Part shown: in pieces, positions 15,705-60,935 of the stretch | Numbering within the stretch: position 1 is the stretch's first letter | How the letters are laid out: each line of letters begins with the position of its first letter | Origin: a phage | Direction: 5' to 3' (one strand) | DNA: 64,000 bases | Assembly: GCA_020619395.1 (NCBI GenBank) | Contig: GCA_020619395.1_4860.1 | The notes under the pieces: model-generated | Seen by the model: the letters and a program-made list of their open reading frames with translations, nothing else | The model's database searches: none | What the model was told of the DNA's origin: nothing | Program-made: the position numbers and the translations under genes

Positions 15705-15730
15705 TCACGTAGATAATATCTATCTCAGAT
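15705..15730 (-). promoter_or_regulatory. conserved 26-nt AT-rich promoter-like motif (copy C)
   Basis: tcacgtagataatatctatctcagat, about 34 nt upstream of the minus-strand start; one of six copies of the same motif. Confidence 0.5.
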
Positions 15731-15776
15731 TACTTTGGGCACGGGTTCATACCCAGTGCCCGTAACGTAAAAAACT

Positions 15777-16475
15777 TTAGGGTATTAGGCGTTGGGCTAT
15801 TTCGCGGAGTTGGTCGCGGGTTAAATCAGCCAACTTCTGGTCGCCGAAGCCCAACTTCAGACCCAGCTCGTATCCAGCTTGCGGATACGTGTTCGTGTTT
15901 GCTACTGAGAGGAGTGCATCGGCTATCTTTACCATCGTTAACTCGAGAGACGCATACGGGGCGGGGATCGGCTGATTCACGATTTGGTAATTATAACGCA
16001 CTGCGGCGTTATCGTAGTCAAACTCCATCCTTCTGCCGAGAACGTTAAACGACTCCGCAGAATAACTACCAAGTGGGTGATTGGCTTTTTCCCACAAATC
16101 TTTCCGTTCAGTAAACCCAGTCGCGAAGTTCTGACGTATGGTGTCGAATATTTGCGTTGCCTGGCTAGGGTGTATATCTTTCAGCTCATTGTAGTCGTAG
16201 TCGGCGATGGAATATAGAGTGAACACAACACCGTTTATATTTAACTGCGGATAATCCATCCGCAAACTGTCATCACCTTGTAAATGAAGTTCCCACATCC
16301 TTACCCACTGCAATATCGCGCTTACCGCATCGTGACTGAGATAAAAATTAGTAGGTTCTTCAGGATTTTCACGGAAGAGAACGGAGCATTCCGAAACAAA
16401 AAAGCCGGCTGCCATAAATCCTCTGCCGTCGAACATAGGCGCAACTAATCTTGATTTTTCTAAATTGATTACCAT
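15777..16475 (-). CDS. hypothetical protein (232 aa)
   Basis: AAGGAG ribosome-binding site upstream of ATG at 16475. Confidence 0.55.
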   Translation of the reverse strand: MVINLEKSRLVAPMFDGRGFMAAGFFVSECSVLFRENPEEPTNFYLSHDAVSAILQWVRMWELHLQGDDSLRMDYPQLNINGVVFTLYSIADYDYNELKDIHPSQATQIFDTIRQNFATGFTERKDLWEKANHPLGSYSAESFNVLGRRMEFDYDNAAVRYNYQIVNQPIPAPYASLELTMVKIADALLSVANTNTYPQAGYELGLKLGFGDQKLADLTRDQLREIAQRLIP

Positions 16476-16511
16476 TACTGTCTCCTTAAGTTAAAACCGA
16501 ACGACTCTCTC

Positions 16512-16538
16512 CCTAAGATAATATCTATCTATAAAATT
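16512..16538 (-). promoter_or_regulatory. conserved AT-rich promoter-like motif (copy D)
   Basis: tccctaagataatatctatctataaaat, about 37 nt upstream of ATG 16475 and just downstream of the terminator of the preceding operon. Confidence 0.5.
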
Positions 16539-16555
16539 TTAGAAAAAAAGAAAAA

Positions 16556-16579
16556 GCTTACTCCCCGAAGGGAGTAAGC
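16556..16579 (-). terminator. rho-independent terminator
   Basis: gcttactccc-cgaa-gggagtaagc hairpin with flanking A/T runs after the stop of 16611..18911. Confidence 0.7.
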
Positions 16580-16610
16580 TAATCTTAGGCAACGTAATCC
16601 TTACGGATTA

Positions 16611-18911
16611 TTAGCCGCCAGCGCCTTCACCGCCAGTACCTGGCTGGGTAGCACCGCCGCCAACATCACCAGCATTACCGCCGTCAGTACCATTAGTACC
16701 GTTGGAAGTAGTAGTGACGTTGAACGCCAGTTTCTCTTCCACGAACTTGGTGATACCTTTAATCCAGATCAGACCAGTGATCGGGCAGTGGCAGATGTGC
16801 GCGTTACGAGGCTGTACTGCCAGCTCTTTGCTGGTAGCGCCGTTACGCTGGATGTTGATGTTGGTTACCATGATCGGAGACCAGAAGTGGTTACCCCAGT
16901 TCAGAACACAGTAAGAACCATCATCAGCGGTTGGAACTTTCAGAACCCACTGCAGGCGACGAGTCCAGCTGCCGTCAGCTTCGTTCTTCACACGCCAGCG
17001 GTCATCGTTGGTGGTGATAACTTCGTACTCGTAGCGATCGCCCAGCAGACGCTGGTCGCCCTGAACCAGCAGCAGCATTGCAGCAGTCGGTTCGTCAGTT
17101 GCGATAACAACTTTCGGCAGCGCGTTCGGGTCCGCAGTCAGCAGGCGCAGAGCCGGCATGAAGCGAGAGTCCTGAATAGCACGAGTTACCTGGTCACCGA
17201 TACGCTGTACCAGACCCTGACGGGCGTTGATGAGCGCATCTTTGGTATCCAGAGACTGGATCACTTTGTCCACTTCGTAGTCGCTTTCGCTGTACCACGG
17301 AGCAACCCAGTGACGGCCCAGGCCGCGGATAGCAGGTTTGTCCCACGGAGTGATCATGGACGCAGCTGCGTTCTTAACCGCTTCGGTGTAAGACAGAGTC
17401 TGAGTAATAGCCAGCATTTCGTTACGGATGTTAACCGCAGAAACGAGGTCGTCCAGACGTTCGGTGTCGTCGTATTCAACGCCAACCGGAGATTTGGTCA
17501 TGATTGGAGAACCGTACTGCAGTTTGTAGTTCTCTTGTTCCCAAATCGGGTCGAGCAGAAGGCCCTGGGTTCTCCGGTTCTCGTTGGTACGAGTACCGTC
17601 GAAGCGCCAGCCCAGCAGCTCCAGTTTCAGGTTGTCGATGATGACTTTGCCGGTGCCGCTTTCGATATCAACAGCAGTACCAGTTGCGTCGTACAGACCT
17701 TCGATTTCCAGAGACGGTGCAGTCACGTCAACACGACCAGAGAACTGACCGTTGGTGAACAGAGACATGCTGATGTTCATGGAATAACGAATGGTGTAGT
17801 CGTTCTGTGCCAGAGCGGCCAGTGCCGGGATTTCAGCACCTTTCCAGTCCAGAGACTTGGCGTTCAGGGAGAACACGGTGCGACGGAACTGCAGGACCAG
17901 CTCACGGCCGTCACCTTCAGGAGGACGCTGGAAGGTAGCGAACTGCATGTCGCGTACGTTCAGTTTGATCAGTGCGCCATCTTTCGCTTCTTCGGTCGGC
18001 TTACGCACAGACAGCAGCAGGCTACCCAGCGCTGCACCCGGTGCGATTTCGTCGGTTTCGTCGTAACCTTCCTGCACGATACCCGGATGGGCAGACAGCT
18101 GGAACAGGTTCAGACGACGCTCAGAGAAGCTCAGGTAGTTGGTCGGATACGCCGGCACACGACCCAGCTGAACGTTTTCGTTTTCGATGATGTCTTCGGA
18201 TACGAAGAACTTCGCGTTCTCACCGGTTTCCATCACGTAAGGAACGATACGGATAGCATCGTCCTGCAGGACTTTGTGGTTAGACAGCGCGTTATGCAGC
18301 GGCTGACGGTTGTCTTCAACCACGTCTTTGGTCAGCAGGGCGTTCAGGATACCACGAGTTACAGTAGTAACTTTGGTACGAACGGTGATGCCGACGTCGT
18401 TGGTGTCCACAGTGATGGTCGGGAACAGGGTTTCTGCAAACTTGGATTGAGTTTCCAGAGCACGCACGTTCAGCGTCCAGGTCAGACCCAGGTTTTTGTC
18501 CAGGTCTTTGTTGGTGTAGTATTCGGTTGCGACCAGCGGAGTTTTACCGTAGTCAGCAGCCAGAGATGCTGCACCGGAAATAGCGATCGGCATGTAGCTG
18601 GCATATTCCGGCTTCGCGCTCTCAGCAGCAACACGGGTCATGAAGTCATCTTCGTGACCGGCAGCAGCCAGAATCATCGCAGAAGCAACCTGAGCAGCGT
18701 GGCTCATGGTTTTGCCAGGGTTTACAGCTTCGTAGTGCTGCTGAGCAGTGTCACGCAGGTTGGTGAAGCCGGCAGCATTTTTACGTACAGATTCGCCAAC
18801 GGCTACGGTTTGCCATACGTCATTAGCGGAAGAGCCTGCCTTGGCAGCAGCGACCAGAGCATTGCCCTGCTGAACCAGCTGGTCCAGACTAGCGATACGG
18901 GTATCTTTCAT
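16611..18911 (-). CDS. abundant structural protein, putative major capsid protein (766 aa)
   Basis: Size matches the roughly 750-aa major capsid proteins of phiKZ-like phages; strongly biased high-expression-like codon usage; strong terminator. Product call is by size and context only. Confidence 0.4.
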   Translation of the reverse strand: MKDTRIASLDQLVQQGNALVAAAKAGSSANDVWQTVAVGESVRKNAAGFTNLRDTAQQHYEAVNPGKTMSHAAQVASAMILAAAGHEDDFMTRVAAESAKPEYASYMPIAISGAASLAADYGKTPLVATEYYTNKDLDKNLGLTWTLNVRALETQSKFAETLFPTITVDTNDVGITVRTKVTTVTRGILNALLTKDVVEDNRQPLHNALSNHKVLQDDAIRIVPYVMETGENAKFFVSEDIIENENVQLGRVPAYPTNYLSFSERRLNLFQLSAHPGIVQEGYDETDEIAPGAALGSLLLSVRKPTEEAKDGALIKLNVRDMQFATFQRPPEGDGRELVLQFRRTVFSLNAKSLDWKGAEIPALAALAQNDYTIRYSMNISMSLFTNGQFSGRVDVTAPSLEIEGLYDATGTAVDIESGTGKVIIDNLKLELLGWRFDGTRTNENRRTQGLLLDPIWEQENYKLQYGSPIMTKSPVGVEYDDTERLDDLVSAVNIRNEMLAITQTLSYTEAVKNAAASMITPWDKPAIRGLGRHWVAPWYSESDYEVDKVIQSLDTKDALINARQGLVQRIGDQVTRAIQDSRFMPALRLLTADPNALPKVVIATDEPTAAMLLLVQGDQRLLGDRYEYEVITTNDDRWRVKNEADGSWTRRLQWVLKVPTADDGSYCVLNWGNHFWSPIMVTNINIQRNGATSKELAVQPRNAHICHCPITGLIWIKGITKFVEEKLAFNVTTTSNGTNGTDGGNAGDVGGGATQPGTGGEGAGG

Positions 18912-18923
18912 TTCAAGTTTACC

Positions 18924-19448
18924 TTATTTAGATAAATGACATGCGTACAACTGCGTCAGCACTTCGTGCGCAGCAAACTGCGTCGACGTACTGAACGTAT
19001 CATCCACGACACGAGTCTTGGGACGCATATATTTAAAAAGTTCTGCGCAGAACATCTTTTTCGCAGCGTGGTCTTCACTTAAAGAAAAACCCGGTCCGGA
19101 TTTAGCTTCTGCAAAAGACGCCACAACAACATCGCCACGTTGTGAGAACACCCAACGTAAACGACCGTCGAATGATTCCCCATATAAATCAGCAAGGGTT
19201 TCATTCGTACCTTTCTCAACCAGGTTTAAGACCTGGTCATAATAAAGAGTCGGAAGTGCAGGTGGTGCCATAATCGATTTATAAATCGAAATAGGGTCAC
19301 TCACTGGCAGTATGATGGAACTAAAGCCCGACGAGCAGTCATATAACCAGTTAAAGAAGCTTGCTTGGAGTTCCTCCAACTTTTTAACGCCAGCCCCTTT
19401 ATCTATGTTAGATTGAACTTCCCACGGTGGACTAAAACGAATTTGCAT
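18924..19448 (-). CDS. hypothetical protein
   Basis: Track ORF extends to 19502 and overlaps the divergent plus gene; first ATG (MQIRFSPPWEV...) is at 19448. Confidence 0.45.
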   Translation of the reverse strand: MQIRFSPPWEVQSNIDKGAGVKKLEELQASFFNWLYDCSSGFSSIILPVSDPISIYKSIMAPPALPTLYYDQVLNLVEKGTNETLADLYGESFDGRLRWVFSQRGDVVVASFAEAKSGPGFSLSEDHAAKKMFCAELFKYMRPKTRVVDDTFSTSTQFAAHEVLTQLYACHLSK

Positions 19449-19462
19449 TTTAAGGATGCTCC

Positions 19463-21025
19463 ATGAATAGTAAAATGATGTTGATAACCGCCTTAGCCGC
19501 ACTGTATACAGAATCTATGCTGACGGACCCTAGCAAGGATCATGATGTCATAAGAAAAGTTCTGATGCAGATCAAGCTTCCGGAATATGCGGAAGATGGC
19601 GAAGAGCGCTTTGCACTCATCGAGATCAAGGACATTATCACATCTATCATAGACGGCGGCATGGAATACGACCACGCGAGCGTTATGAAGCGCTTGAAGC
19701 TGGCCACCACTCAAGTACGTCCTCTATACGATACGATTACCAAATTCCTCGAAGACGATTTGCCCGAGGAAGAAGACAAACGTACCGAGCATCTTAATCG
19801 ACAACTGTCTCAATATTATTTCCAATTACGTCAATGTTTACAGAGCGTCGAACTCAAAACAAAAATGGGTCGCGCGTTCGGAGCATTGAATGGAACTGAG
19901 ACACGTGTTGATCTGAACACCGCAGTGCTCGAACTCAAAGAGGCGCTATCTACGTTCGGTGAACGCTCTCATAATAAGATTCCATCACTGGTTGGTGAGC
20001 TGGTTACGGATAATCGTGCTCCGTTTGTTAAAGTGTTCGACTCGATTAACAAGAAAGCAGCAGGTAATGGTTTGCAGACGGGCTGGAAAGCCATTAACCA
20101 AATGCTCGGTTGTAACAAAGGGATTACCGAAGAACTGTGGCTAATGCCGGCGTTACCTTTTAACTGTAAGTCTTTGTTCAGTCTCTTACTGAGCTTGTCG
20201 ATTCCTATCTTCAACACGCCTGAGAAAGTAATGGCGGATGTGAAGGGCACACTGCAACCAATTATTCTTGACTTGAGTTTAGAAAACGAACTCGACGTTA
20301 ACTTAGCTTACGGCTATCAAGCACTGTACGGTCATTTTGAAGGACAAGTTCCACAGATGACCATTGCCCAAGATGCGACCGCTGAAGAGAAGTTAGCACA
20401 CACAACAGCAATGTCTGATTACCTCTGTGGTAAGATTCGCGCAAACGGTTGGGACTACGTTTTCCAAAAGCACACCAACTCCGATTTTAAAGTGCACTAC
20501 ATCAACGACCTTATTCTCGACTTACGTCGTCGCGGTTATCATGTTGTTGGCATTCGCGCAGACTACTTAGGCACAATCAGCAAAGCAGGACACGGCAACG
20601 GTATTGCCGGGAGTGATATCAAAGAAATTTATCGTATTGCTCGTAACATCCAAGTGGTACGCAACCGTGGGTTCTTAATTGCCCCACACCAGATTTCCCC
20701 AGAAGGTAAGCGCTTAAAAGCGTTAGACCCGGTAGGTTTCTGTAAGAACTTACCTGGTCGTGGTCTTTACGATAGTTGTTCGAGCCTTGATAACGAGGCC
20801 GATGGTGAAATGTATTTTAACAAGCGTGTGGTCAACGGCCATAGCTTCTTAGAAGTTCAACGCGGTAAGCACCGCACCATTATCGATACTAAAGAATCTT
20901 ATCACTACACAGTGATACCTTTCCAGGATGTTGGCATCCTGCCTTGGGATTGTGATAAAGAAGAAACCGTAACAGCGTCGTCTATCAACTTCTTCACCGG
21001 TGGAATGGGTGATGATTTGTTCTAA
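19463..21025 (+). CDS. hypothetical protein (520 aa)
   Basis: AAGGA ribosome-binding site; followed by plus-strand terminator hairpin ggggagc-ttag-gctcccc. Confidence 0.55.
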   Translation: MNSKMMLITALAALYTESMLTDPSKDHDVIRKVLMQIKLPEYAEDGEERFALIEIKDIITSIIDGGMEYDHASVMKRLKLATTQVRPLYDTITKFLEDDLPEEEDKRTEHLNRQLSQYYFQLRQCLQSVELKTKMGRAFGALNGTETRVDLNTAVLELKEALSTFGERSHNKIPSLVGELVTDNRAPFVKVFDSINKKAAGNGLQTGWKAINQMLGCNKGITEELWLMPALPFNCKSLFSLLLSLSIPIFNTPEKVMADVKGTLQPIILDLSLENELDVNLAYGYQALYGHFEGQVPQMTIAQDATAEEKLAHTTAMSDYLCGKIRANGWDYVFQKHTNSDFKVHYINDLILDLRRRGYHVVGIRADYLGTISKAGHGNGIAGSDIKEIYRIARNIQVVRNRGFLIAPHQISPEGKRLKALDPVGFCKNLPGRGLYDSCSSLDNEADGEMYFNKRVVNGHSFLEVQRGKHRTIIDTKESYHYTVIPFQDVGILPWDCDKEETVTASSINFFTGGMGDDLF

Positions 21026-21033
21026 CGAACACT

Positions 21034-21051
21034 GGGGAGCTTAGGCTCCCC
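21034..21051 (+). terminator. rho-independent terminator
   Basis: Hairpin ggggagcttaggctcccc immediately after the stop of 19463..21025. Confidence 0.55.
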
Positions 21052-21157
21052 TACGGGCAGTTTATGCGTCCTGCCAAGATCAAAAAAAATACGACGAACT
21101 ATTTATATGCATGGAATTACCCGAGTGCTGGAACACTCGGGTAAGAGTTATTTCATG

Positions 21158-21304
21158 TTAACTTTTGTTTAGTAGTATTTCACCTCCTAAACCCTTGATA
21201 CGACGAACAGTGTTCTGCTTGGGCGCAGTCAACTGTTGTACACGTTGGTTGAATTGGGTTTGCTTAACGTAATGGTTAAGTATTTGCGAACGTAGTTGTT
21301 CCAT
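21158..21304 (-). CDS. small protein, IKGLGG-motif paralog 1 (48 aa)
   Basis: MEQLRSQILNHYVKQTQFNQRVQQLTAPKQNTVRRIKGLGGEILLNKS; GGAGG ribosome-binding site 6 nt upstream; own terminator hairpin (21120-21141); paralog of the next gene. Confidence 0.55.
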   Translation of the reverse strand: MEQLRSQILNHYVKQTQFNQRVQQLTAPKQNTVRRIKGLGGEILLNKS

Positions 21305-21416
21305 GTAGTGCCTCCTTAGGCAGGTTGTTAATATATCGCTGCGCTGTGGTGGTACACAATGCACCGATATACTGTCACGGGAGTTAAAAGGGGTGCTCGA
21401 ACACCCCTGGTTAGTG

Positions 21417-21563
21417 TTACTTCTTATTGAAGATGATGTCACCTCCTAGTCCTTTAATGGTACGGGTGGAAGTCTGCGTTGGGCGGCTAACCTCTTGCAG
21501 ACGTTGTTGAAAAGCGACTTGTTTCAGCTGTTGCTGACGCAGTTGTTGCATAAAGGTATTCAT
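21417..21563 (-). CDS. small protein, IKGLGG-motif paralog 2 (48 aa)
   Basis: MNTFMQQLRQQQLKQVAFQQRLQEVSRPTQTSTRTIKGLGGDIIFNKK; below the 60-aa track cutoff; GAGG ribosome-binding site; own terminator (21390-21407). Confidence 0.55.
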   Translation of the reverse strand: MNTFMQQLRQQQLKQVAFQQRLQEVSRPTQTSTRTIKGLGGDIIFNKK

Positions 21564-21676
21564 GTTAACCTCTAAGTGGATGTGAATAAGCTCTCTCCTT
21601 CGGGAGAGAGCGCCTTTTATTTTCTTTTCGGAAAATAAATATAAAACCCTCTTACCCGAAGGTAAGAGGGGTACTA

Positions 21677-22537
21677 CTACGGTTTATAATCAACTTCGTT
21701 GATCTTGCCGCAAGCCGGACAAGCAATGTTCATTGTCTGCGAAGTATAGCGATGGGTTCTCGGTACTGTAGCGACATGGTTGCGGTTACAGCCGGAACAC
21801 GTCCAGCCAACCACTGGTGCCTTCGATTGTTTCTGGGCAGGTGTGTCTTCTTTTAACAATGCGACTACCGCGTGAAATTTACGAAGCTCTGCGTTAACAT
21901 GCGCTTCCCAGTCGGCGTCCAAACGCGCCGTGAACCAACGTTGAATCTTCTGGCCAAGTCCGTCTTGATTTTCTTCTTCATGGGACATCACAAACTTGAG
22001 ATTTGCACGACCCCATTGCACGACGTTCTCTACTTTAATCCCGTCTACGGTGTCGCTGATTGGCGTATAGTTAAAAGTTGGATAGGTGAGATAACAAGCT
22101 TCAGCTGTTGCAAAGACAGTATTGCCTTCAAACAGTGCCATGGCCTCATCGCCCTTAGCATCCTTCTGTGCGGCTTCCAATCGTGGGCAATGGAAACCTT
22201 CAAGTTGCTGGATTTTGGTCGTTAGCGCATTGATACCCTGTAGCACGGCAATGCGCTTTTTGCTGTCTGTGATCGTCGCCATTACCTTGCACAACGCGCG
22301 CGAGATAGCGCTATACATTGACGTTTTGCGGTTTTCATCGAGGAAACGCTCTTGCTGCTCCAGGTCGTAAGAAGACAGGCCGTAGCTCTGCCCTTCGACC
22401 AACACGACATAAGTACGACGTTTGTCGCGGTCCAGCTGGACAATGGCCGCATCGGTTAACGGATCGCTAGCCAATACTTCGTGGTTGGGAGGTAGGGGGA
22501 AATCCGAACTTTTGATAAAATCAGTAATGCTGTACAT
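21677..22537 (-). CDS. hypothetical protein with C-terminal zinc-ribbon-like Cys pairs
   Basis: AAGGAC ribosome-binding site; C-terminus contains CSGC...(19 aa)...CPAC. Confidence 0.5.
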   Translation of the reverse strand: MYSITDFIKSSDFPLPPNHEVLASDPLTDAAIVQLDRDKRRTYVVLVEGQSYGLSSYDLEQQERFLDENRKTSMYSAISRALCKVMATITDSKKRIAVLQGINALTTKIQQLEGFHCPRLEAAQKDAKGDEAMALFEGNTVFATAEACYLTYPTFNYTPISDTVDGIKVENVVQWGRANLKFVMSHEEENQDGLGQKIQRWFTARLDADWEAHVNAELRKFHAVVALLKEDTPAQKQSKAPVVGWTCSGCNRNHVATVPRTHRYTSQTMNIACPACGKINEVDYKP

Positions 22538-22540
22538 TTT

Positions 22541-22963
22541 TTAGTCCTTAAGAGAGTTAATAAAGTCATCTAAACTAATATCACGGAATGGGAAGTAAAC
22601 ACCTTCAAGCGGAATCGTGTAGTGTTCACTAATGGCACGTTGCCAATCCAGAACAGTTGCAGGGTAGTTCACAACCTCAAAGTTAGGATGCGTGATTGGC
22701 GGAATTGCGTTGTAAACATAGCCGTTAATATTTTTCGATGGGAACGCTGCACGGAACTTCGGCTCCATGTAGAACATTTCTTCTTTTACTTCCTGGCCTT
22801 CCCAGAAACGATAGCCACCCTTACCGTCAGGAATATAAATCGCCTTGTCACGGGGTATAGGGGAATCCTTGGATAGCGGAACAAATCGCCCGTACTGGTC
22901 AAGAACCATCCAGTCAGTGTCATTCTTTAAATACTTTTGGAGCTTCTCATTAATCATTTTCAT
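22541..22963 (-). CDS. hypothetical protein
   Basis: Start set at internal ATG 22963, which has an AAGGAA ribosome-binding site; the track ORF start at 23038 would run through the terminator hairpin 22982-23003. Confidence 0.45.
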   Translation of the reverse strand: MKMINEKLQKYLKNDTDWMVLDQYGRFVPLSKDSPIPRDKAIYIPDGKGGYRFWEGQEVKEEMFYMEPKFRAAFPSKNINGYVYNAIPPITHPNFEVVNYPATVLDWQRAISEHYTIPLEGVYFPFRDISLDDFINSLKD

Positions 22964-23015
22964 GTTCCTTAGGCAAAAAATAATACCACCCGTAGGTGGT
23001 ATTAAATTATCTATA

Positions 23016-23204
23016 CTACTTCTTCCCGAGTTCCCCACGGAACTTCGCCAGCTCTTCTTTCCAGTCCGGCTTCGGTAGTGCGCTTTTCGGCCCCACGATA
23101 AACGTACGTTCTGAGGTTTGCGGATTCACCTCTACTGTTTCGTTATCTTCCACTTCGCGAAGCACGATTCCGTTTTTACCATCGTAATTAACTAAAACGC
23201 CCAT
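23016..23204 (-). CDS. hypothetical small protein (62 aa)
   Basis: AGGAG ribosome-binding site upstream of ATG 23204. Confidence 0.45.
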   Translation of the reverse strand: MGVLVNYDGKNGIVLREVEDNETVEVNPQTSERTFIVGPKSALPKPDWKEELAKFRGELGKK

Positions 23205-23386
23205 TAGTAAATCTCCTGCTGCATTGGAAACACATTACCTGTCGGTGAGACGAGTAAGACTTGCGCGGTAACGTGAACAATTTCTTCTTCGTCCTGATGA
23301 CGAACACCGTTAGTGAGATTATCCCACTCACGTTTAACACGAGGGTGAGATAAGAACTCGGCAAACTGCGTATCAGAAAAGTCCAT
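23204..23386 (-). CDS. hypothetical small protein (60 aa)
   Basis: ATG at 23386 overlaps the stop of the upstream small ORF in a TAATG arrangement; track ORF uses a GTG at 23404. Confidence 0.4.
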   Translation of the reverse strand: MDFSDTQFAEFLSHPRVKREWDNLTNGVRHQDEEEIVHVTAQVLLVSPTGNVFPMQQEIY

Positions 23387-23529
23387 TAGCCGCGACCTGT
23401 ACACATGGCAACAGAGTTACCGTTATCGATGCACTTGTTGTAATCTTGAGTTACAGTGATAGACAGTACCGCGAAAGCAACAACAGCAACGATTGCGAAG
23501 ATGGCACGTTTATGGTTACGAGTTAACAT
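23386..23529 (-). CDS. small single-pass membrane peptide (47 aa)
   Basis: Not in ORF track. MLTRNHKRAIFAIVAVVAFAVLSITVTQDYNKCIDNGNSVAMCTGRG; AAGGAG ribosome-binding site 7 nt upstream; first gene after promoter-like motif A. Confidence 0.4.
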   Translation of the reverse strand: MLTRNHKRAIFAIVAVVAFAVLSITVTQDYNKCIDNGNSVAMCTGRG

Positions 23530-23580
23530 GGTAATACTCCTTTAGCTTAATAGTCGATTGAGTTGATAGATTGTCTTCTA

Positions 23581-23606
23581 TCACCTAGGTAATATATATC
23601 TGAAAT
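23581..23606 (-). promoter_or_regulatory. conserved AT-rich promoter-like motif (copy A)
   Basis: tcacctaggtaatatatatctgaaat; identical 26-mer also at 32085-32110; about 52 nt upstream of ATG 23529. Confidence 0.55.
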
Positions 23607-23636
23607 TATTTTTATTCAGAGTACACCCTCTATAAC

Positions 23637-23727
23637 GCTCTCAAACGCGTTTTGAGAGCTTTTATCACTTTAGAGGGTCGTTCTACCGTTAGAGTGGCTT
23701 TAGAAGGTTGTGTGTGCGTTTAGAGGG
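23637..23727. repeat. intergenic array: 9-bp inverted repeat plus four helically phased direct repeats TTAGAG(G/A/T)G
   Basis: Palindrome gctctcaaa-cgcgt-tttgagagc (23637-23659); direct copies at 23669, 23689, 23699, 23719 (spacing 20/10/20 bp). Confidence 0.5.
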
Positions 23728-23741
23728 CTAAAATAAAGAGA

Positions 23742-23764
23742 CCTGGTCTCACAAGGAGACCAGG
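23742..23764 (-). terminator. rho-independent terminator
   Basis: cctggtctc-acaag-gagaccagg hairpin after the stop of 23772..24569, T-rich tail on minus strand. Confidence 0.6.
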
Positions 23765-23771
23765 CACACTT

Positions 23772-24569: not shown

Positions 24570-24612
24570 TGCAATATTTTCCTTAAGGTTACTTACGGGT
24601 CATACTAGATGA

Positions 24613-26465: not shown

Positions 26466-26467
26466 TA

Positions 26468-29300: not shown

Positions 29301-29352
29301 TAGCTGTCCCTCGTTGTAGTCATATCACTGGCCTAAAACGCAAAAAAAAAGA

Positions 29353-29372
29353 AAGGGAGCCGAAACTCCCTT
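29353..29372 (-). terminator. rho-independent terminator
   Basis: A-run + aagggag-ccgaaa-ctccctt hairpin after the stop of 29379..29708. Confidence 0.5.
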
Positions 29373-29378
29373 CGTGTT

Positions 29379-29708
29379 TTAGTGGGCCAGCCAAGCTAGC
29401 TGCCACTTCTTACATTTTATTCCGCTGTGTCCAACCGGATTGCGGATAATGTCCATCGTTTTCCCGACAACGAATTCAATCATCTTGTCTGATAGCATTT
29501 TACCCATCGCGATAGAGAGGGCCGTAACCTGATCAGGGTCATCGATGTACGCATAGACCGGCTCATTACTGCCGAAGATAAGATAGAAGGAACCCTCGCA
29601 GGCCACGATTGAGGTCAGTGGCACGATGCACCCGGTATACACTCTCGCCAGTTCAGCCGCTTTTGGGGTTACTTCCATTACGTAACCCTTAACAGATTTC
29701 TTTTCCAC
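29379..29708 (-). CDS. hypothetical protein (109 aa)
   Basis: ORF 1 nt downstream of the dihydrofolate reductase gene. Confidence 0.45.
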   Translation of the reverse strand: MEKKSVKGYVMEVTPKAAELARVYTGCIVPLTSIVACEGSFYLIFGSNEPVYAYIDDPDQVTALSIAMGKMLSDKMIEFVVGKTMDIIRNPVGHSGIKCKKWQLAWLAH

Positions 29709-29709
29709 T

Positions 29710-30261
29710 TTAAACTCCAGCGATACGGTTTAAAATTTGATACGTCCAACGGTGCGTGTGTTTCTGGCCGTCGGGTAAATGGGTCATGGTGTAGTCGACT
29801 TGAAAAACATCTCTGTCGATTTCTGGGAAGAAAGCATCGGCACCTTCAACAGCGATGTCAATACGCGATAGATAGATACGATCCACTCGAGCGAGGGTTT
29901 GTTGATAAACTGATGCGCCACCAATAATCATCACCTCTTGCTCTTTCCCGGTATCTTTCTCAATACGTTCCAGAGCTTTGATAGCTAAGTCAATACTCGT
30001 GTGATACGTCACCAAACGCATGTCCGTGTGTTCTTCCCGGCCACTAATATAAGCTTCTGGGTTACGAGTAACGATTAAGTTACCGCGGTTAGGCAAAGGA
30101 CGACAACCTAACGATTCCCAGGTCTTACTACCCATGATAACGTTCTTCCCTGTGGTAATTGCCTTAAAGTTAGCCAGGTCGGCAGGCAGACGCCACGGCA
30201 GTTCATTGTTTTTACCGATGGCATTGTTGCGGTCCATCGCGACGATAATAGAGAGTTTCAC
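29710..30261 (-). CDS. folA: dihydrofolate reductase
   Basis: IVAMDRNNAIGKNNELPWRLPADLANFKAITTGKNVIMGSKTWESLG..RPLPNRGNLIVTRN and MIIGGASVYQ align to E. coli FolA ([66 protein letters not shown]). Confidence 0.9.
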   Translation of the reverse strand: MKLSIIVAMDRNNAIGKNNELPWRLPADLANFKAITTGKNVIMGSKTWESLGCRPLPNRGNLIVTRNPEAYISGREEHTDMRLVTYHTSIDLAIKALERIEKDTGKEQEVMIIGGASVYQQTLARVDRIYLSRIDIAVEGADAFFPEIDRDVFQVDYTMTHLPDGQKHTHRWTYQILNRIAGV

Positions 30262-30629
30262 GGTTTGCTCCTACGGGCTTTAGATAATTCTTTCATTGCG
30301 TGGCGTAAATGGCGACTAAATTCAAGACGGCTATACGAGAATGTCACCGGATAGTCCAGAATCACCGACAGTGATACCGTTCTGGCATCCACATCGACCA
30401 ACAGACTGTTCGTACAGCAACCTGCAAACATCCCACCACCAACCAACGGCCTCTTAAGCCTAATAGTTAGCGTGCCAAGCCATTCCCTGTCGCCGAGCAG
30501 CAACAAGGCCTCTGCCAGGTCTTCTTCAACTATCGCTAGACAGTATTCGTCATCTCGTACACGGAGGCGAATCTGCGGTTCTACGTTTGTGGTTTCTGGC
30601 ATCATCTCAAATTTAAATTTATCGGTCAT
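30258..30629 (-). CDS. hypothetical protein (123 aa)
   Basis: ORF overlapping the dihydrofolate reductase start by 4 nt. Confidence 0.45.
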   Translation of the reverse strand: MTDKFKFEMMPETTNVEPQIRLRVRDDEYCLAIVEEDLAEALLLLGDREWLGTLTIRLKRPLVGGGMFAGCCTNSLLVDVDARTVSLSVILDYPVTFSYSRLEFSRHLRHAMKELSKARRSKP

Positions 30630-30676
30630 CTCACAATCCCAAAAAAGAAGGTGGCTTGTTAGGCCACCTTATTAAA

Positions 30677-31222
30677 TCATTGAACCATACGCTGCGCGTC
30701 GTAAGACGGTGCGAGGTTCACAACACGACCATGTAGAGTTTGCTCTGCTTCGTCTAACAGGTCATCGCGTACGAGCGTCTGGCGAATGTAAAGCGTTGCC
30801 CGTATCCCCTCAGCGCTGTAAGGCGCGGTGACCATTTTGGTCTGGTAACCTTCAATCGTCACCGGAACACGCTCGCCATTACGACGAACAAAATGCTCCA
30901 GCTTACCGTAATCGTGACTGCAGACTTTAGACATGTCAGACAATCCCGCATCGATTAAGTATTTCCAAAGACTGACGATGCCTTCTGAGCAATGTTTGTT
31001 AAGTTCACCTTCGACGACAAACTCGTACCCACCGTACGTTAGAATGTGCGTGCCTGCTGAACGACGGTCACATTCTAAAATGAACACGCCCAGACCAATC
31101 ATAACCGGACGTGGGATTGTCATGACACTGGTACTAAATTGCAGCGTAGTAACCTCATCCCAAAGGGGCGATGATTTGTCGTTGCTTACACTAATAACAT
31201 CTTTGAGATTGACACGTTTCAT
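30677..31222 (-). CDS. hypothetical protein (181 aa)
   Basis: ORF; promoter-like motif F lies upstream. Confidence 0.5.
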   Translation of the reverse strand: MKRVNLKDVISVSNDKSSPLWDEVTTLQFSTSVMTIPRPVMIGLGVFILECDRRSAGTHILTYGGYEFVVEGELNKHCSEGIVSLWKYLIDAGLSDMSKVCSHDYGKLEHFVRRNGERVPVTIEGYQTKMVTAPYSAEGIRATLYIRQTLVRDDLLDEAEQTLHGRVVNLAPSYDAQRMVQ

Positions 31223-31263
31223 TATAAATACTCCTTACGATTAATGGTCGATTACATACGGTT

Positions 31264-31288
31264 TCAGGCTAACGTAATATTTACGCTG
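31264..31288 (-). promoter_or_regulatory. AT-rich promoter-like motif (copy F, degenerate)
   Basis: tcaggctaacgtaatatttacgctg; minus-strand core TAAATATTAC; about 42 nt upstream of ATG 31222. Confidence 0.35.
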
Positions 31289-32042
31289 CTGGTTCTTCAG
31301 CGGTTTTCACTTCAACTGGTTTCATCAACGAGTTCGCACAGTCGAAGATAGCATCCAGGAAACCACGGAACGGCTTCATGGCTTCACGCTGGGCGTTCTG
31401 ACGTTCTTCTTCAATTGCGTCTTCTTGCGCCTGAATTTCTTCAGCAGTCAGCTCCGGGTGTTCCATCATGCTTTCTGCCAGGGTCATCACTTTCGGCTGC
31501 GCATTCAGAATCGGAATACGGCGGATGACCTTGGTGATATTCCCGAGCTTCATGCCACCCAGCATGGTATCGAACAACGTACCGAAATCTTGCAGTGGGT
31601 CTTCGCTGATTTCCAGTACCGCCGGAGTCGCAACCAGACCAAAGGCAATGACCAATTCAACAGCAGTGTCAGTGACGTGCGCAGCGAACGGAGTGTCTTC
31701 CATCTGCAGGTAATTGTTACCATTATAGGTCACCGGAATGAATTTGATTTCTTCCCCTTTCTTCAGGCGCAGTGTATCGACTGCGGCTTTGTACTGAACT
31801 TCGTACAGTTCCGGTTTAACACCGTCAACGTTATCCAGTGTAAAGAGCAGGTCGCCAACCGCCATACGGCGCGGTAGTTTGCGTTTGTTGATTTCGCGCA
31901 GCCAGACTTGTAAGCCGGTGAATTGAATTGGGGACAGTCTAATTTTAAAGCCGTTGGTTGCTTGCAGGATAGCACCGTCGTCTTCGCTACGTTCGATAGA
32001 GCCATTAGCCAGAGTGAGCAGATTGATAGTTTTCATTTTCAT
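31281..32042 (-). CDS. hypothetical protein (253 aa)
   Basis: ORF; first gene after promoter-like motif B. Confidence 0.5.
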   Translation of the reverse strand: MKMKTINLLTLANGSIERSEDDGAILQATNGFKIRLSPIQFTGLQVWLREINKRKLPRRMAVGDLLFTLDNVDGVKPELYEVQYKAAVDTLRLKKGEEIKFIPVTYNGNNYLQMEDTPFAAHVTDTAVELVIAFGLVATPAVLEISEDPLQDFGTLFDTMLGGMKLGNITKVIRRIPILNAQPKVMTLAESMMEHPELTAEEIQAQEDAIEEERQNAQREAMKPFRGFLDAIFDCANSLMKPVEVKTAEEPAA

Positions 32043-32084
32043 ATTCCTTAAGTGATGGTCGGTTAAAAGATTACCAATGCAATC

Positions 32085-32110
32085 TCACCTAGGTAATATA
32101 TATCTGAAAT
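32085..32110 (-). promoter_or_regulatory. conserved AT-rich promoter-like motif (copy B)
   Basis: tcacctaggtaatatatatctgaaat, identical to copy A; between terminator 32144-32167 and ATG 32042. Confidence 0.55.
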
Positions 32111-32143
32111 CTTTTCTAATCTGAGACAAAAAAAGAAAGGGTA

Positions 32144-32167
32144 AATCCCCCACCGAAGTGGGGGATT
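32144..32167 (-). terminator. rho-independent terminator
   Basis: aatcccccac-cgaa-gtgggggatt hairpin with A/T-runs after the stop of 32179..33438. Confidence 0.7.
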
Positions 32168-32178
32168 CGCCAGTCTAA

Positions 32179-50411: not shown

Positions 50412-50419
50412 AATTTCTA

Positions 50420-56495: not shown

Positions 56496-56519
56496 GCTGC
56501 CCCTCTTCGCACAAAAAAA

Positions 56520-56538
56520 GAGGGGCGCAAGGCCCCTC
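56520..56538 (-). terminator. rho-independent terminator / attenuator between beta-prime fragment and helicase
   Basis: gaggggc-gcaag-gcccctc hairpin preceded by an A-run (T-run on minus strand) just after the stop of 56542..58647. Confidence 0.55.
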
Positions 56539-56541
56539 GGT

Positions 56542-58647
56542 TTACAACTCAATTACCACAGCGGCTCCTAGGTCATCGTACAACGATGCCGGGATTTTGT
56601 ACTCGGTATAAAAACCAACGCGATCGATATTCCCCTGCTGTCCTTCAAACAACAACATCGGAATTGCCGAGCGCAAACTAATGAGCGTGTTGTGATCGAC
56701 AAACCGTTTCCCGGTGGCATTAGTAGAATCCTCACTGTCAAATCCTACTGCCGGGAACGGATTGGTTGGTGACTCTACACGAGATATCGCCAACATAATC
56801 GCAATGTGCGTCATCGGTATACCGCTCAGCTTACGCTGGATGTACTTAAACGTATCCATCAACGCATAAGTACACTGTTTCTCTGTAGCACCACCCATTT
56901 CAACCAACGTTACCGGTTTCACACGACCTTGTTTCTTGTTCAACTTCACAGTCGAGGCTGTGTTGATGATTTCCACAATGTCTTCGTTCTTATCGGCTGC
57001 GATTGAACGTAGCTTGGTTTCTAACCCTGCCACGAATTCTGCCATCGATTCAGAACGGTTGGTGTAGACCAGTACCGGGTGTTTCGGGTTCCATCCTTTC
57101 AAAGGAATCTGAACCGTCTTCTTCTCGATACGAATGTTCGCACGTTGTTTCAAGAAGTAATGCAAGAACGGTTTAGAGAAGTTCCCACAAACACCCATTC
57201 GCACATCGATAGAATCTGCAGCGATGATTTGCCCATCTTCTAAACGACGCTGGAATGTCAAGTCGGTGATTTCCGGCAATGCTGTTTCATCGATTGCATC
57301 GAGATCTTCATGATACGCAATCTGGCTCAGCTCCGAATAAACTTTGTCGGTAACGACCAACTCGTATTCTGACCAATTACCACGCTGTGGTTTTGGTAGC
57401 AAGCACAACCCTTTCAGAGAGTTATGTTTGTATTCGGTCATGTACTCACGCATTCTCGGCGTGAGTACCAGGTTGAGCAGATAACGCAAGAAGTCAAGGT
57501 GCTTGGTAGAGAGAATTCCCTGTGTACCCTTTTCCGAGATGGACGTGGACGCCAGGTGACCTGGTGACGTACCTTCAGAGAGGTTATAAATCAAATCCCC
57601 CATACAGGTCGCACAGATGGACTGATTCGCCATCTCTTTACAGGTCATGGCACTACGGAAGACCAGCGGTTTGCCAACCAGGTCTGCGTATCCGCCTTTC
57701 TCAAATCTCAACCACGGACCATTATCACCTTCTAAACGATAACGCATCCCCACCATCGCTTTATAGGCACGCTCATCCAGCTGCGTATCCTTAAACGTGT
57801 AGCGGTGTGCGTGAGTTGTACCGCAGTCGTCGTACGTGAAATACATCAGTACGTTTGCTGCCAACTGCAGTTTACGTGAGGCGTATTCTGCTTCGGCAAT
57901 CTTGTCAGTGTTGTACAAGTGGGAACGTGAAGTTGCACCGGATTCTTTCAAACGCGAAATAACCGAGTGCATTCCGGTAAAGAAGCCTTCCCACACCTGA
58001 TTGGTGTATACACGTGAGTCAATTTCTGACGTTTTACCACGCACGAAGGCTTGCAGTACCTGGTTCATCTTCACAGTACCGTCCAGTACCGACATCACGA
58101 CCGGGTTATACCGTAGCGCAGGGTCTTTGAAGATTTTCTCGATAAGCTTGTACGCTTCTTCAACCATATCCCGACCATCTTCATCGTAGCCAGTAGGATA
58201 TTGCACTTCCCACTGACGGATGAGTTCGAAGTTCGGATGGTCGTAGATCTCCATCATCGTATCAAAGTCGATTGTCGTACAATAGGACAGCAAGTTCTTC
58301 ACTGTCATGTTGAACGCATCGGCGTAGACATGTTGACTCAGGATATAACGCGTTTCAGCAAGGTCGACGCCTGCTTTACGGGCCAGTACCGCTGCTTCCG
58401 ACATAAAGTCCAGATGCAGGTCATCTGTTGCTACCTGACCTGGACGATACGCCATGGTCGATGGAGTGGGCACCTGCGGATACAGACGCGACACACCCCA
58501 ATACGGCCAGCTGAGTTTGATGTGGCGACTAGACATTTCCAACGACTTACCATCGTCGAATGTCACGTAATAACGCCCGCGTAGTTTCCACACCTGATCA
58601 GAGTTAAGCATACGCAAATCACGTACGTGTACAGAACGACCCGCCAT
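56542..58647 (-). CDS. multisubunit RNA polymerase beta-prime homolog, C-terminal part
   Basis: LMYFTYDDCGTTHA parallels E. coli RpoC LVVTEDDCGTHEG; FRSAMTCKEMANQSICATCMG...ASTSISEKGTQ parallels VRSVVSCDTDFGVCAHCYG...AAQSIGEPGTQ (trigger-loop region). Confidence 0.7.
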   Translation of the reverse strand: MAGRSVHVRDLRMLNSDQVWKLRGRYYVTFDDGKSLEMSSRHIKLSWPYWGVSRLYPQVPTPSTMAYRPGQVATDDLHLDFMSEAAVLARKAGVDLAETRYILSQHVYADAFNMTVKNLLSYCTTIDFDTMMEIYDHPNFELIRQWEVQYPTGYDEDGRDMVEEAYKLIEKIFKDPALRYNPVVMSVLDGTVKMNQVLQAFVRGKTSEIDSRVYTNQVWEGFFTGMHSVISRLKESGATSRSHLYNTDKIAEAEYASRKLQLAANVLMYFTYDDCGTTHAHRYTFKDTQLDERAYKAMVGMRYRLEGDNGPWLRFEKGGYADLVGKPLVFRSAMTCKEMANQSICATCMGDLIYNLSEGTSPGHLASTSISEKGTQGILSTKHLDFLRYLLNLVLTPRMREYMTEYKHNSLKGLCLLPKPQRGNWSEYELVVTDKVYSELSQIAYHEDLDAIDETALPEITDLTFQRRLEDGQIIAADSIDVRMGVCGNFSKPFLHYFLKQRANIRIEKKTVQIPLKGWNPKHPVLVYTNRSESMAEFVAGLETKLRSIAADKNEDIVEIINTASTVKLNKKQGRVKPVTLVEMGGATEKQCTYALMDTFKYIQRKLSGIPMTHIAIMLAISRVESPTNPFPAVGFDSEDSTNATGKRFVDHNTLISLRSAIPMLLFEGQQGNIDRVGFYTEYKIPASLYDDLGAAVVIEL

Positions 58648-60884
58648 TATTTATCCTCCCGAATTGGACGCACTAATTCAAAACCTTCACAGCGATGGAT
58701 GTTACGTATCATCCTGTCAATCTGCGAATCTCCCATTGGCAGTTTCTTACGATCGACCAGCACCCCCGGATTGGTTGGTGTTGGCGAGTTATACAGCCCC
58801 GTTACGATCGCACGGTGTACCGCAGGGTTATTAGCGCGGTCATGAGTTTCGGGGAAGTTGCCCGGACCAAAGCCGTCGGTAAGACGCTGCTCGGAAGGAC
58901 CACCCCACTTCAACCCTTTCAGGTTAATCGGATATGAACCACGTCCTTGGTTGGATGCATCAATACAACCCAAATAGTTCGTGTACATCGACGAGATACT
59001 GGAGAACTCACGACCGGTTTTATCCAGGCGCAGAGTCTCTACCATGCCGACGTAGAACTGGTTCTTCGTCCACTCTTTCTCACCCTGATAGTTAGTAATC
59101 AGTAGCTTAGACTTGCGTGGTGCATACTCGCCTAGAGCACGGCAGATTTCTACCTGGGTGGCATTCAATTCGTGGGGAAGCCAGATACGAATCGTGAAGT
59201 CGTAAATCTCTTTAAAGAGTTCCAGACGTGACTCAGTATCTGGGTGACTGGCATTGAGATAGAATGTCCAGCGTGGGTTATAGCGATCGATATAGTCCAT
59301 CAGGATTTCCCAGGCTTCATCAACCTGGTTGGCAGCAAGTAATGGTTTCAACCGCATCTTCAACTGCTCGGATGCAGCAGACCAATACATGTGGAACAGC
59401 GCAGCATAAGTCGAACGACGAATTACGGCGTTCATGGAACGAATGACATGCACACGTTCTCCGAACTCGTTAATCGGCATTTCTTCATCAGGCCGCACTG
59501 CACCCACGATACCTTTTGTACCTGAACGGTCGGTGATTTTCGATGAGACGGTAACTGGGATTGGATAACGTACCACGATGCGTATCGTGTAACTACCAAT
59601 TGGGTCCCAGAGACCACGCTGAACCGGCTGCGCCAGTTTGTTTAACACGTTCTTATCAGCAGAACGGTTATACTCGCCTTTGCGCATGGCTTCATCGTAT
59701 TCACGACCAATCTCTTCACGGAAGTCGTTATAGACTTCATACGTCTCAGAACAGAACGCCTTGTCAAGAATCTCAAACGCTTTCGGTGACCAGACAATAT
59801 TCTTGTCCTTGGACATCGCAAAATAGAACCGCACGATATCATTGTAAAAACGTTTCAAAGCGTTCGCGTAGTGATCTAACTCGCGTTTGTTCTCTTCGGT
59901 ACATGCGATATTGTTAACACCACGATCGCATTTGGTTTCGTCCCGCCATACCTGAATATCAACGACACGAGAACCAGTACGTTCCATCTTTTCAAAGTCG
60001 CCAGCCTGACGCGCTTTGTAATGCTCAGGGTCAGCATCAACATACTCACAACGGTCGAAGTGCGGAGAGATATGTTGTGTTTCACCTACGTGCGAGTCAA
60101 TGGCTGCCCATAGCTTATCGAAACGGCGCGCGGCAATAACCAACCCATCATCACGAATTGCCTGTCCTTTATTGGGCAGGTACTGTGGTCGACGAACGCC
60201 ATCAATACCCGTTGTCCCATACGTATCAAGCAGGTACTCGTCGTCGCGCAAGGTAAAGTCGATTGCACGCAAACCATAAGCGTGCATCGCTTTCGCTGCA
60301 GTTTCGGAGATGGTGTACGAGTCCTCGATAATGTCCGGGTGCGACATTGTCACAGTGTGCAGGTTGACCCCATCGACAAACTCACCGTCTTTCTGTGCCG
60401 GCAGTACGGTAAGCATTTCATCTTTTTCCAGGTGCTGCGTCTGCCCGCGCAGCAACGCCTGAAGTTTCCCAGTAGCCTCTTTCTTAGACGAGAAAATGTT
60501 ATCGTGGTTGGTGTAATACTTAATATCGATTACATCAATCATCACTTTGCGCTGGTTGGTTAAATCTGCGCGCGTGAAGAAGATAACATGCTGGAGCGGT
60601 TCGTGATCCCCTTCACGACCATAGCGTGCAAAAACAGCTGCACGAGTAACACCTTCTTTGGTTGTGTAACTGCACACGGTACCACTGTCTTCCACGATAT
60701 CGTTAAAACAATAATCGTGGTAGTTCACATCAGCGCCGGTAAAATGGATAGTCGGATCTGGATTGTCCAGTGGTACCGCCGACTTCATATGTCCACCCAC
60801 CATTGAGGCACGTGCCCCAGATACGCCAGTGATATTCACCTCACGGTCAGCAACGCTTGACATGAGTTCGACTGGTGTTTTCAT
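58647..60884 (-). CDS. multisubunit RNA polymerase beta homolog, C-terminal half
   Basis: DIIEDSYTISE parallels YNFEDSILVSE; SRVVDIQVWRDE parallels GTVIDVQVFTRD; ITDRSGTKGIVGAVRPDEEMP parallels [26 protein letters not shown] parallels VPSRMN. Confidence 0.8.
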   Translation of the reverse strand: MKTPVELMSSVADREVNITGVSGARASMVGGHMKSAVPLDNPDPTIHFTGADVNYHDYCFNDIVEDSGTVCSYTTKEGVTRAAVFARYGREGDHEPLQHVIFFTRADLTNQRKVMIDVIDIKYYTNHDNIFSSKKEATGKLQALLRGQTQHLEKDEMLTVLPAQKDGEFVDGVNLHTVTMSHPDIIEDSYTISETAAKAMHAYGLRAIDFTLRDDEYLLDTYGTTGIDGVRRPQYLPNKGQAIRDDGLVIAARRFDKLWAAIDSHVGETQHISPHFDRCEYVDADPEHYKARQAGDFEKMERTGSRVVDIQVWRDETKCDRGVNNIACTEENKRELDHYANALKRFYNDIVRFYFAMSKDKNIVWSPKAFEILDKAFCSETYEVYNDFREEIGREYDEAMRKGEYNRSADKNVLNKLAQPVQRGLWDPIGSYTIRIVVRYPIPVTVSSKITDRSGTKGIVGAVRPDEEMPINEFGERVHVIRSMNAVIRRSTYAALFHMYWSAASEQLKMRLKPLLAANQVDEAWEILMDYIDRYNPRWTFYLNASHPDTESRLELFKEIYDFTIRIWLPHELNATQVEICRALGEYAPRKSKLLITNYQGEKEWTKNQFYVGMVETLRLDKTGREFSSISSMYTNYLGCIDASNQGRGSYPINLKGLKWGGPSEQRLTDGFGPGNFPETHDRANNPAVHRAIVTGLYNSPTPTNPGVLVDRKKLPMGDSQIDRMIRNIHRCEGFELVRPIREDK

Positions 60885-60907
60885 TCGTAAATGCTCCTTT
60901 TGGTTAC

Positions 60908-60935
60908 CTCGGTAAGATAATATCTATCTGTTTTA
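60908..60935 (-). promoter_or_regulatory. conserved AT-rich promoter-like motif (copy E)
   Basis: tcggtaagataatatctatctgttttat about 24 nt upstream of the beta-fragment start; sits in a divergent intergenic region. Confidence 0.5.

Follow-up and report, generated by a model that had tools for sequence, protein, structure and literature searches.

Probable phiKZ-type early promoters in an SPN3US-like jumbo phage contig

We analyzed a 64,000-nucleotide (nt) stretch of phage DNA (GenBank assembly GCA_020619395.1, contig GCA_020619395.1_4860.1; hereafter the window), in which a short AT-rich element recurs on the minus strand ahead of series of minus-strand genes. Five sites carry this element, and we consider it highly probable that they are early promoters of an SPN3US-like chimallivirus, belonging to the phiKZ-like class that is read by the virion RNA polymerase. 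The polymerase, the exact start nucleotide and the timing of transcription are what we infer for these five promoters. The promoter class itself is already known, and its presence here is an ordinary, expected feature of an SPN3US-like phage.

Results and discussion

The window and its phage

When positions 15000–33000 of the window were compared by megablast with GenBank phage records, the Salmonella phages SPLA5c, SPLA3, SEGD1 and SPN3US matched this segment over its full length, in reverse orientation and with 98–98.6% identity. By this sequence comparison, the window is part of an SPN3US-like Salmonella jumbo phage of the genus Seoulvirus, a chimallivirus, and its counterpart in SPN3US lies at roughly 25–88 kb. 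The Chimalliviridae, phiKZ-like jumbo phages, form a nucleus-like compartment. Of 61 genes in a greedy gene set of the window, 53 fall on the minus strand, and the non-coding share is ~3.6%; the G+C content is ~49% throughout. The genome encodes both a virion and a non-virion multisubunit RNA polymerase: we found homologs of the non-virion subunits (Table 1), and mass spectrometry has shown that the SPN3US virion packages five RNA polymerase subunits, gp42, gp218, gp240, gp241 and gp244 (PMC5694885).

Five copies of the element

The element is built around a 15-nt core, AGATAKATATTAYCT, that occurs exactly at five sites in the window, all on the minus strand and all outside every open reading frame (ORF) of the greedy gene set (Table 1). 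The plus strand holds no exact match, and chance predicts none; with three or fewer mismatches allowed, there are 9 matches in the window against 3.0 expected. Named here by the first position of their cores, the sites 15711, 16516, 23587, 32091 and 60915 lie 39, 40, 57, 48 and 30 nt, respectively, from a minus-strand start codon preceded by a Shine–Dalgarno (SD) sequence. On a 34-position matrix derived from SPN3US they score 36–45.5 bits, and a scan of both strands of the window with this matrix returned no site beyond the five. The window sites are orthologs of the matrix seeds, which makes their high scores partly circular; the shuffle statistics and the patterns taken from the literature are independent of the matrix.

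The initial annotation had listed six copies of a motif, described as always intergenic and as lying 24–52 nt upstream of the first start codon of a minus-strand gene series. Five of these copies are real, given the exact core and the zero expectation. The sixth, at 31264–31289, was rejected as a promoter copy, since it scores −24 bits on the 34-position matrix and is a partial look-alike via AAATATTACGT only. It lies within a 58-nt spacer inside an operon, and its TAA is the stop codon of the ORF at 31281–32042. The intergenic placement ahead of minus-strand genes holds for all five true sites. The spacing agrees with what had been described, at 24–51 nt when counted from the end of the longer motif used in that annotation. 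Three sites, 15705, 23581 and 32085, match its 21-nt plus-strand consensus in full, and 16510 (given before as 16512) matches with three mismatches; shuffled sequence would be expected to yield none. The two copies reported as identical, at 23581 and 32085, are indeed so over TTTCAGATATATATTACCTAGGTGA, and the 23580 copy is identical to 32084–32109.

Table 1. Promoter copies, leader elements, genes and terminator-like hairpins. Positions are those of the window unless SPN3US is named; starts of transcription are predictions.
Feature	Position	Strand	Details
Early promoter copy (probable), sub-class A	60908..60941	-	core AGATAGATATTATCT 60915-60929; 36.0 bits; predicted start G 60910; ATG 60884
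Early promoter copy (probable), sub-class B	32084..32117	-	core AGATATATATTACCT 32091-32105; 43.0 bits; predicted start G 32086; ATG 32042
Early promoter copy (probable), sub-class B	23580..23613	-	core 23587-23601; 42.2 bits; predicted start G 23582; ATG 23529
Early promoter copy (probable), sub-class A	16509..16542	-	core 16516-16530; 42.6 bits; predicted start G 16511; ATG 16475
Early promoter copy (probable), sub-class A	15704..15737	-	core 15711-15725; 45.5 bits; predicted start G 15706; ATG 15671
Sub-class B leader hairpin	32067-32086, 23564-23583	-	also SPN3US 56294, 65413, 94239, 113986, 165687, 223277; IMG/VR loci
AATCGACYATTA, exact copies	23548-23559, 31242-31253	-	SPN3US 65455, 94280, 114030, 167592, 223318, 224197
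Homolog of phiKZ non-virion RNA polymerase gp71-73	58647..60884	-	phmmer vs PDB 7ogp chain C (PHIKZ071), E = 2e-29; first gene behind 60915
Homolog of phiKZ non-virion RNA polymerase gp74	56542..58647	-	7ogp chain D (PHIKZ074), E = 9e-39; second gene behind 60915
Homolog of phiKZ non-virion RNA polymerase gp123	12877..14655	-	7ogp chain E (PHIKZ123), E = 3e-20; phrog_2943 'polymerase'; second gene behind 15711
334-amino-acid gene	14667..15671	-	first gene behind 15711; SD; phrog_7286 (unknown function); length as SPN3US 72738-73742
Single 232-amino-acid gene behind 16516	15777..16475	-	phrog_15414 (unknown function)
Gene series behind 32091	29379..32042	-	four genes scanned: dihydrofolate reductase and three of unknown function; fifth ORF 29379-29708 ends series
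Dihydrofolate reductase	29710-30261	-	Pfam DHFR_1, E = 4e-47
Small-gene series behind 23587	22541..23529	-	first is 47-amino-acid ORF 23386-23529; SPN3US annotation 65485-66474
Terminator-like hairpin and T run	32143..32168	-	11 pairs, 6 G-C; 38 nt upstream of 32091 core
Terminator-like hairpin and T run, ends major head protein gene	16555..16580	-	11 pairs, 6 G-C, tail TTTTTCTTTTT; 25 nt upstream of 16516 core
Terminator-like hairpin	23741..23765	-	10 pairs, 6 G-C; ~140 nt upstream of 23587 core

Agreement with published early promoters

In phiKZ-like phages, the virion RNA polymerase starts transcription at 28–32 AT-rich early promoters (PMC7598289, PMC8244752, PMC10914365, PMC13282480), and the early motifs of this family are AT-rich blocks centered near −10 of the early transcripts (PMC7598289, PMC8244752, PMC11512511). 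According to one review, bioinformatic searches can detect a conserved motif of this type, centered near −10, ahead of the presumed early operons in every jumbo phage with polymerases of its own (PMC7598289). Predicted consensuses are available for N1M2 (TTTCARRYAKATATTATYWAAGTGWA; extended, TBYAWWWWWTTTCARRYAKATATTATYWAAGTGWA), OBP (TTTYARRYAKATATTATYWWADTG; extended, BSHAWWWWWTTTYARRYAKATATTATYWWADTG) and 201phi2-1 (TTTRARR_BTATATTACDWHDGTG; extended, TTAWTAVAA_HYWTTTRARR_BTATATTACDWHDGTG), and the phiKZ early-promoter core is TATATTAC (PMC7058600, Table 2 therein).

The window motif, TTTCAGATAKATATTAYCTnaGTGA, fits the N1M2, OBP and 201phi2-1 consensuses position by position, and agrees with the first two nearly letter for letter (compare TTTCARRYAKATATTATYWAAGTGWA). 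Used as a pattern, the N1M2 string alone retrieves three of the five window sites at three or fewer mismatches, and a merged OBP/201phi2-1-type pattern retrieves four of the five at two or fewer, two of them exactly; zero are expected in either case. The site at 32091 has no mismatch to the merged pattern. OBP and N1M2 differ from the present phage in genus and host, and their promoters are likewise predictions made without transcript mapping. The copy number is similar (31 sites in N1M2 against ~22 in SPN3US; for other phages, 28–32 have been reported in phiKZ (PMC8244752) and 34 in AR9 (PMC5312081)), and N1M2 sites have been reported before the gene of an RNA polymerase β subunit (PMC7058600).

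The TATATTAC sites of phiKZ, taken from its first 85 kb and including the ones ahead of gp54 and gp68, read aAAaaaATTTgAGAtnTATATTAC-N5-TGa, which is the order and spacing of TTTCAGATATATATTAC-CTAGG-TGA in the window motif. Both phages thus share a KATATTAY block followed by 5 nt and TG, as well as an upstream ATTT-(C/g)-AGAT and an A-rich patch, and in both the element is present in multiple intergenic copies on the gene strand. Copies also stand before non-virion polymerase genes in each, namely gp68 and gp54–gp55 in phiKZ and the homologs of gp71–74, gp123, gp68 and gp55 here, and the SPN3US matrix weakly matches two phiKZ TATATTAC sites (up to 26 bits), one of them before gp54. The two differ in that AGATA, CT and the G-A pair are nearly invariant here, so that the fixed part exceeds the eight bases of phiKZ, in the last core base, which is mostly T here (TATTAT) and not C, and in the starts, which in this phage are predicted from sequence. 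Furthermore, phiKZ is AT-rich whereas the present genome has 49% G+C, which makes the motif more conspicuous here.

These comparisons support the proposal of the initial annotation that the motif is an AT-rich early promoter of the phiKZ type with a TATATTAC-like core. That it is longer than the core of this class does not set it apart, as the OBP, N1M2 and 201phi2-1 motifs are equally long. A text search of the literature for the motif string together with "jumbo" gave no match.

Among the relatives, 201phi2-1 has been studied by ONT-cappable-seq (PMC11512511). Its AT-rich motif lies ~10 bp upstream of mapped starts and runs to the start region, and its conserved −10, −20 and −30 regions correspond to the layout proposed below (PMC11512511). 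Only six sites were mapped directly, however, and the sequence details differ (BTATATTACDWHDGTG). The Bacillus jumbo phage AR9 uses the same two-polymerase strategy and has an over-represented motif before its early operons, which in AR9 is transcript-mapped (PMC5312081); it differs in its uracil-containing DNA, in forming no nucleus and in its consensus, and is a functional analogue only. In coliphage N4, too, the virion carries a polymerase that reads phage-specific signals to transcribe the early genes (PMC4496689), but that enzyme is a single-subunit polymerase and its signal is a DNA hairpin upstream of the start, whereas the signal here is linear and AT-rich, with hairpins downstream of the predicted start.

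Architecture of the element

Alignment of the SPN3US seed sites gives a full element of ~31 nt, A..A.ATTTC-AGATAKATATTAYCT-n(a/g)GTGA, in which the G-A pair five and six bases past the core is almost invariant. All five window sites contain KATATTAY, as do the ~22 SPN3US sites. The information profile is asymmetric, with an A/T block upstream and the G-A pair downstream of the core, as expected of a directional signal. We distinguish two sub-classes, A (AGATAGATATTATCT) and B (CAGATATATATTACYTAGGTGA). The sub-class A core is partly palindromic, with a 5+5 inverted repeat (AGATA-N5-TATCT), whereas the sub-class B core, the form under the strictest conservation, is not symmetric (AGATA ... TACCT).

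Transcription likely starts at the invariant G of the G-A pair, 5 nt past the 15-nt core, at all five sites. This prediction follows the layout of the phiKZ family; in 201phi2-1, the mapped starts sit at the end of the motif.

The AT-rich core also invites comparison with host promoters, since its TATTAT matches five of the six bases of TATAAT, and TATTAT or TATATT could serve as the −10 hexamer of a strong sigma-70 promoter. One weak sigma-70-like match (9/12) does overlap the 15711 site, but a simple sigma-70 scan left the other four sites unflagged and found 14 matches in the region against 20.8 in shuffles. There is no conserved −35 hexamer 16–18 nt from the −10 element at the sites, the hexamer of sub-class B ends in C (TATTAC), a mismatch at its critical last base, and the conservation spans ~31 nt, including AGATA and the G-A pair, which are dispensable for sigma-70 promoters. 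Gene expression in phiKZ, moreover, is unaffected by rifampicin, an inhibitor of the host RNA polymerase (PMC13282480). We therefore rejected the host-promoter reading, which we regard as very improbable.

Distribution in SPN3US

The matrix was built on 21 seed sites with two or fewer mismatches to the core, collected from the whole SPN3US genome, in which AGATAKATATTAYCT occurs exactly 11 times. These seeds and one further site (238181) score 31–45 bits, while shuffled genomes reach ~14 bits at best; two weaker candidates score ~20 bits. The 22 strong sites all share the strand of the gene that follows, and 21 of them lie between annotated genes, 31–140 nt ahead of a start. A random distribution relative to gene starts had been named as the outcome that would speak against a promoter role, and the genome-wide search shows that the placement is not random in SPN3US. 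The matrix scan found no copy in the virion-structural blocks at 115–135 kb, 145–159 kb and 202–212 kb.

Words of the motif are the most repeated 12-mers of SPN3US (7 and 6 copies), ranking above the ribosome-binding-site word CTTAAGGAGTAT and the T runs of terminators. The over-represented 10-mers TATCTTTAAC and ACAGCGTATC were rejected as signals, as they lie in coding sequence with unrelated flanks. A window copy of SPN3US 25226 appears to be missing, but there is no discrepancy, since this site maps past the window end, at about 64,660.

Conservation in other phages

From the Erwinia phages Asesino (Erskinevirus) and Kwan (Wellingtonvirus), we compared 41 kb each around the polymerase operon. 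This region lies in part beyond the window, and its local alignments to the window are ~71–72% identical. Both phages carry the motif at five of five positions equivalent to SPN3US 15614, 15707, 23810, 25226 and 28969. Ahead of the polymerase operon, AGATAGATATTATC and the A-tract in the spacer do not vary among SPN3US, Asesino and Kwan, and the remainder of the spacer diverges in Kwan. The exact sub-class B 22-mer CAGATATATATTACCTAGGTGA is found at 22 places in IMG/VR, all on contigs of 150–245 kb plus one 7.4-kb contig.

One of these conserved copies lies within the coding sequence of the gp68 homolog and is kept in the three genera (SPN3US 25226–25240, Asesino 16555, Kwan 16321). It is 266 nt ahead of the next gene and ~660 nt past the window end, and it is probably an internal promoter for the homologs of gp69 and gp70.

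The three genera also share a tandem pair of motifs 93 nt apart in SPN3US (15614/15707), with counterparts at 6920/7012 in Asesino and 6798/6885 in Kwan. The pair precedes a 617-amino-acid gene, which is followed by the gp55 homolog. This gene (SPN3US 15768–17621) occupies the place of the nuclear-shell gene in phiKZ; tested as a chimallin, it gave no PDB match and no significant BLASTP match to phiKZ gp54.

Genes and terminators around the sites

Homologs of three components of the phiKZ non-virion polymerase stand behind window sites (Table 1), and outside the window, in SPN3US, further copies have the gp68 homolog as first gene and the gp55 homolog as second gene. Each of the five phiKZ non-virion polymerase subunits thus has its homolog in first or second place behind a copy, as expected if the motif is read by the sole phage polymerase present at the start of infection. 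This arrangement also bears on whether the sites are instead middle-class promoters of the second, non-virion polymerase, or are read by both phage polymerases. There is some precedent, as phiKZ transcribes gene 54 from an early as well as a middle start (PMC8244752) and middle or late promoters lie near some non-virion polymerase genes of 201phi2-1 (PMC11512511). The non-virion polymerase, however, cannot be required for the first transcription of all five of its own subunit genes. In these phages, moreover, middle promoters are marked by a TACT block with an A-rich repeat ~22 nt ahead of the start, and late promoters by TATG at the start (PMC7598289, PMC8244752); both are unlike the motif, which agrees with the early class at ~25 positions. 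We consider a middle-class or dual role improbable.

Three of the five sites have a strong terminator-like hairpin just ahead of them, which would insulate these units from upstream transcription. The 16509..16542 copy sits directly past the terminator of the major head protein gene.

Proposed course of early transcription

The assignment of the five sites as early promoters suggests the following course of events. The packaged multisubunit RNA polymerase (gp42, gp218, gp240, gp241 and gp244 in SPN3US) would be ejected into the cell with the DNA. By analogy with its relatives, the virion polymerase probably reads the sites, and it would recognize the ~31-bp element as a directional signal. Relative to the proposed start, the A-rich patch would then lie at −31 to −26, ATTTC at about −24 to −20, AGATA at −19 to −15 and KATATTAY at −14 to −7. 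Transcription would begin at the invariant G, mostly within GTGA (Table 1), and would give leaders of 26–53 nt, comparable with the 31–40 nt typical of phiKZ (PMC8244752). The transcripts would encode the non-virion polymerase (homologs of gp71–73, gp74 and gp123), dihydrofolate reductase and many small proteins of unknown function, and the upstream terminators would shield three of the five units from the genes ahead of them. Host-independent, rifampicin-resistant transcription is known from phiKZ and relatives (PMC13282480, PMC10541120).

Several points weigh against this assignment. The identity of the polymerase and the start site are drawn by analogy with phiKZ, 201phi2-1 and AR9. The gene series behind 60915 continues in the same direction for ~11 kb, as far as a homolog of a virion polymerase subunit (48201–49499, at the position of SPN3US gp42), which is expected to be a late protein; genes downstream of a copy are therefore not necessarily all early. 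For most genes behind the copies no function is known, and an early role can therefore not be checked gene by gene. Finally, the partly palindromic cores of sub-class A would also suit a dimeric DNA-binding protein.

This last point raises the question of whether the repeat is mainly an operator for such a phage protein, with AGATA-N5-TATCT as its palindrome, and not a polymerase site. The inverted repeats of sub-class A produce weak echoes on the reverse strand, and at SPN3US 191602/191620 one core between divergent genes scores on both strands. Sub-class B, by contrast, is asymmetric despite being the most strictly conserved form, and the flanks of the element are asymmetric as well. The strong sites are oriented with the next gene in 22 of 22 cases, with one weaker echo (191620, 21 bits) at the divergent pair, and the same asymmetric layout is documented as an early promoter in relatives (PMC11512511, PMC8244752, PMC7058600). 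An operator as the main function is, in our view, extremely improbable.

As early promoters, the five sites would mark the starts of early transcription units in SPN3US-like phages and predict their transcription start points. They confirm that the early-promoter signal of phiKZ-like phages is kept almost letter for letter among Pseudomonas phage OBP, Klebsiella phage N1M2 and the examined Salmonella and Erwinia phages, and they could serve as ready test templates for the poorly characterized virion RNA polymerase. Their importance beyond annotation is small.

At the divergent pair mentioned above, the single, partly palindromic core at SPN3US 191602–191620 scores 37.7 and 21.2 bits on the two strands and lies 32–35 nt from each start codon. 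It may be a bidirectional site.

Leader hairpin and second leader element

In sub-class B, the predicted transcript opens with a hairpin, which starts at +1 to +3 and often has a T run behind it; sub-class A sites are without one. The stems vary with compensating changes (GAGATTGC/GTAATCT, GATAGA/TCTATC, GAGAGTTA/TAACTCT and GAGCGTTA/TAACGCT), and the folding energies are below those of shuffled sequences for sub-class B leaders, but not for sub-class A. Such a hairpin could serve as an attenuator or make the mRNA more stable at its 5′ end.

A second leader element, AATCGACYATTA, precedes the ribosome-binding site AAGGAG by 3–8 nt on the gene strand, both behind promoter copies and where none stands upstream. 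Six exact copies occur in SPN3US, where ~0.06 would be expected by an estimate from length and composition. One copy in the window adjoins the rejected 31264 site. An Rfam scan of the window returned no family, and neither the hairpin nor AATCGACYATTA matches one.

It is conceivable, though doubtful, that sub-class B (CAGATATATATTACYTAGGTGA) is part of a conserved and repeatedly copied leader cassette, composed of the hairpin, GACYAT / AATCGACYATTA and AAGGAG, that controls a subset of early genes after initiation. If so, the cassette could act through protection of the mRNA 5′ end, attenuation or the binding of a phage or ribosome-associated factor. We found no description of a sub-class B leader cassette in the searchable literature.

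A gene between two promoter copies

The gene at 15777–16475 is intact in the window, where it lies between two promoter copies, whereas its SPN3US counterpart (72541–72640) has an internal deletion of ~607 bp. Recombination between the flanking promoter copies was considered as the origin of this deletion and rejected, as both of its ends lie inside the gene. The deletion leaves the first ~22 codons and the 3′ end of the SPN3US counterpart.

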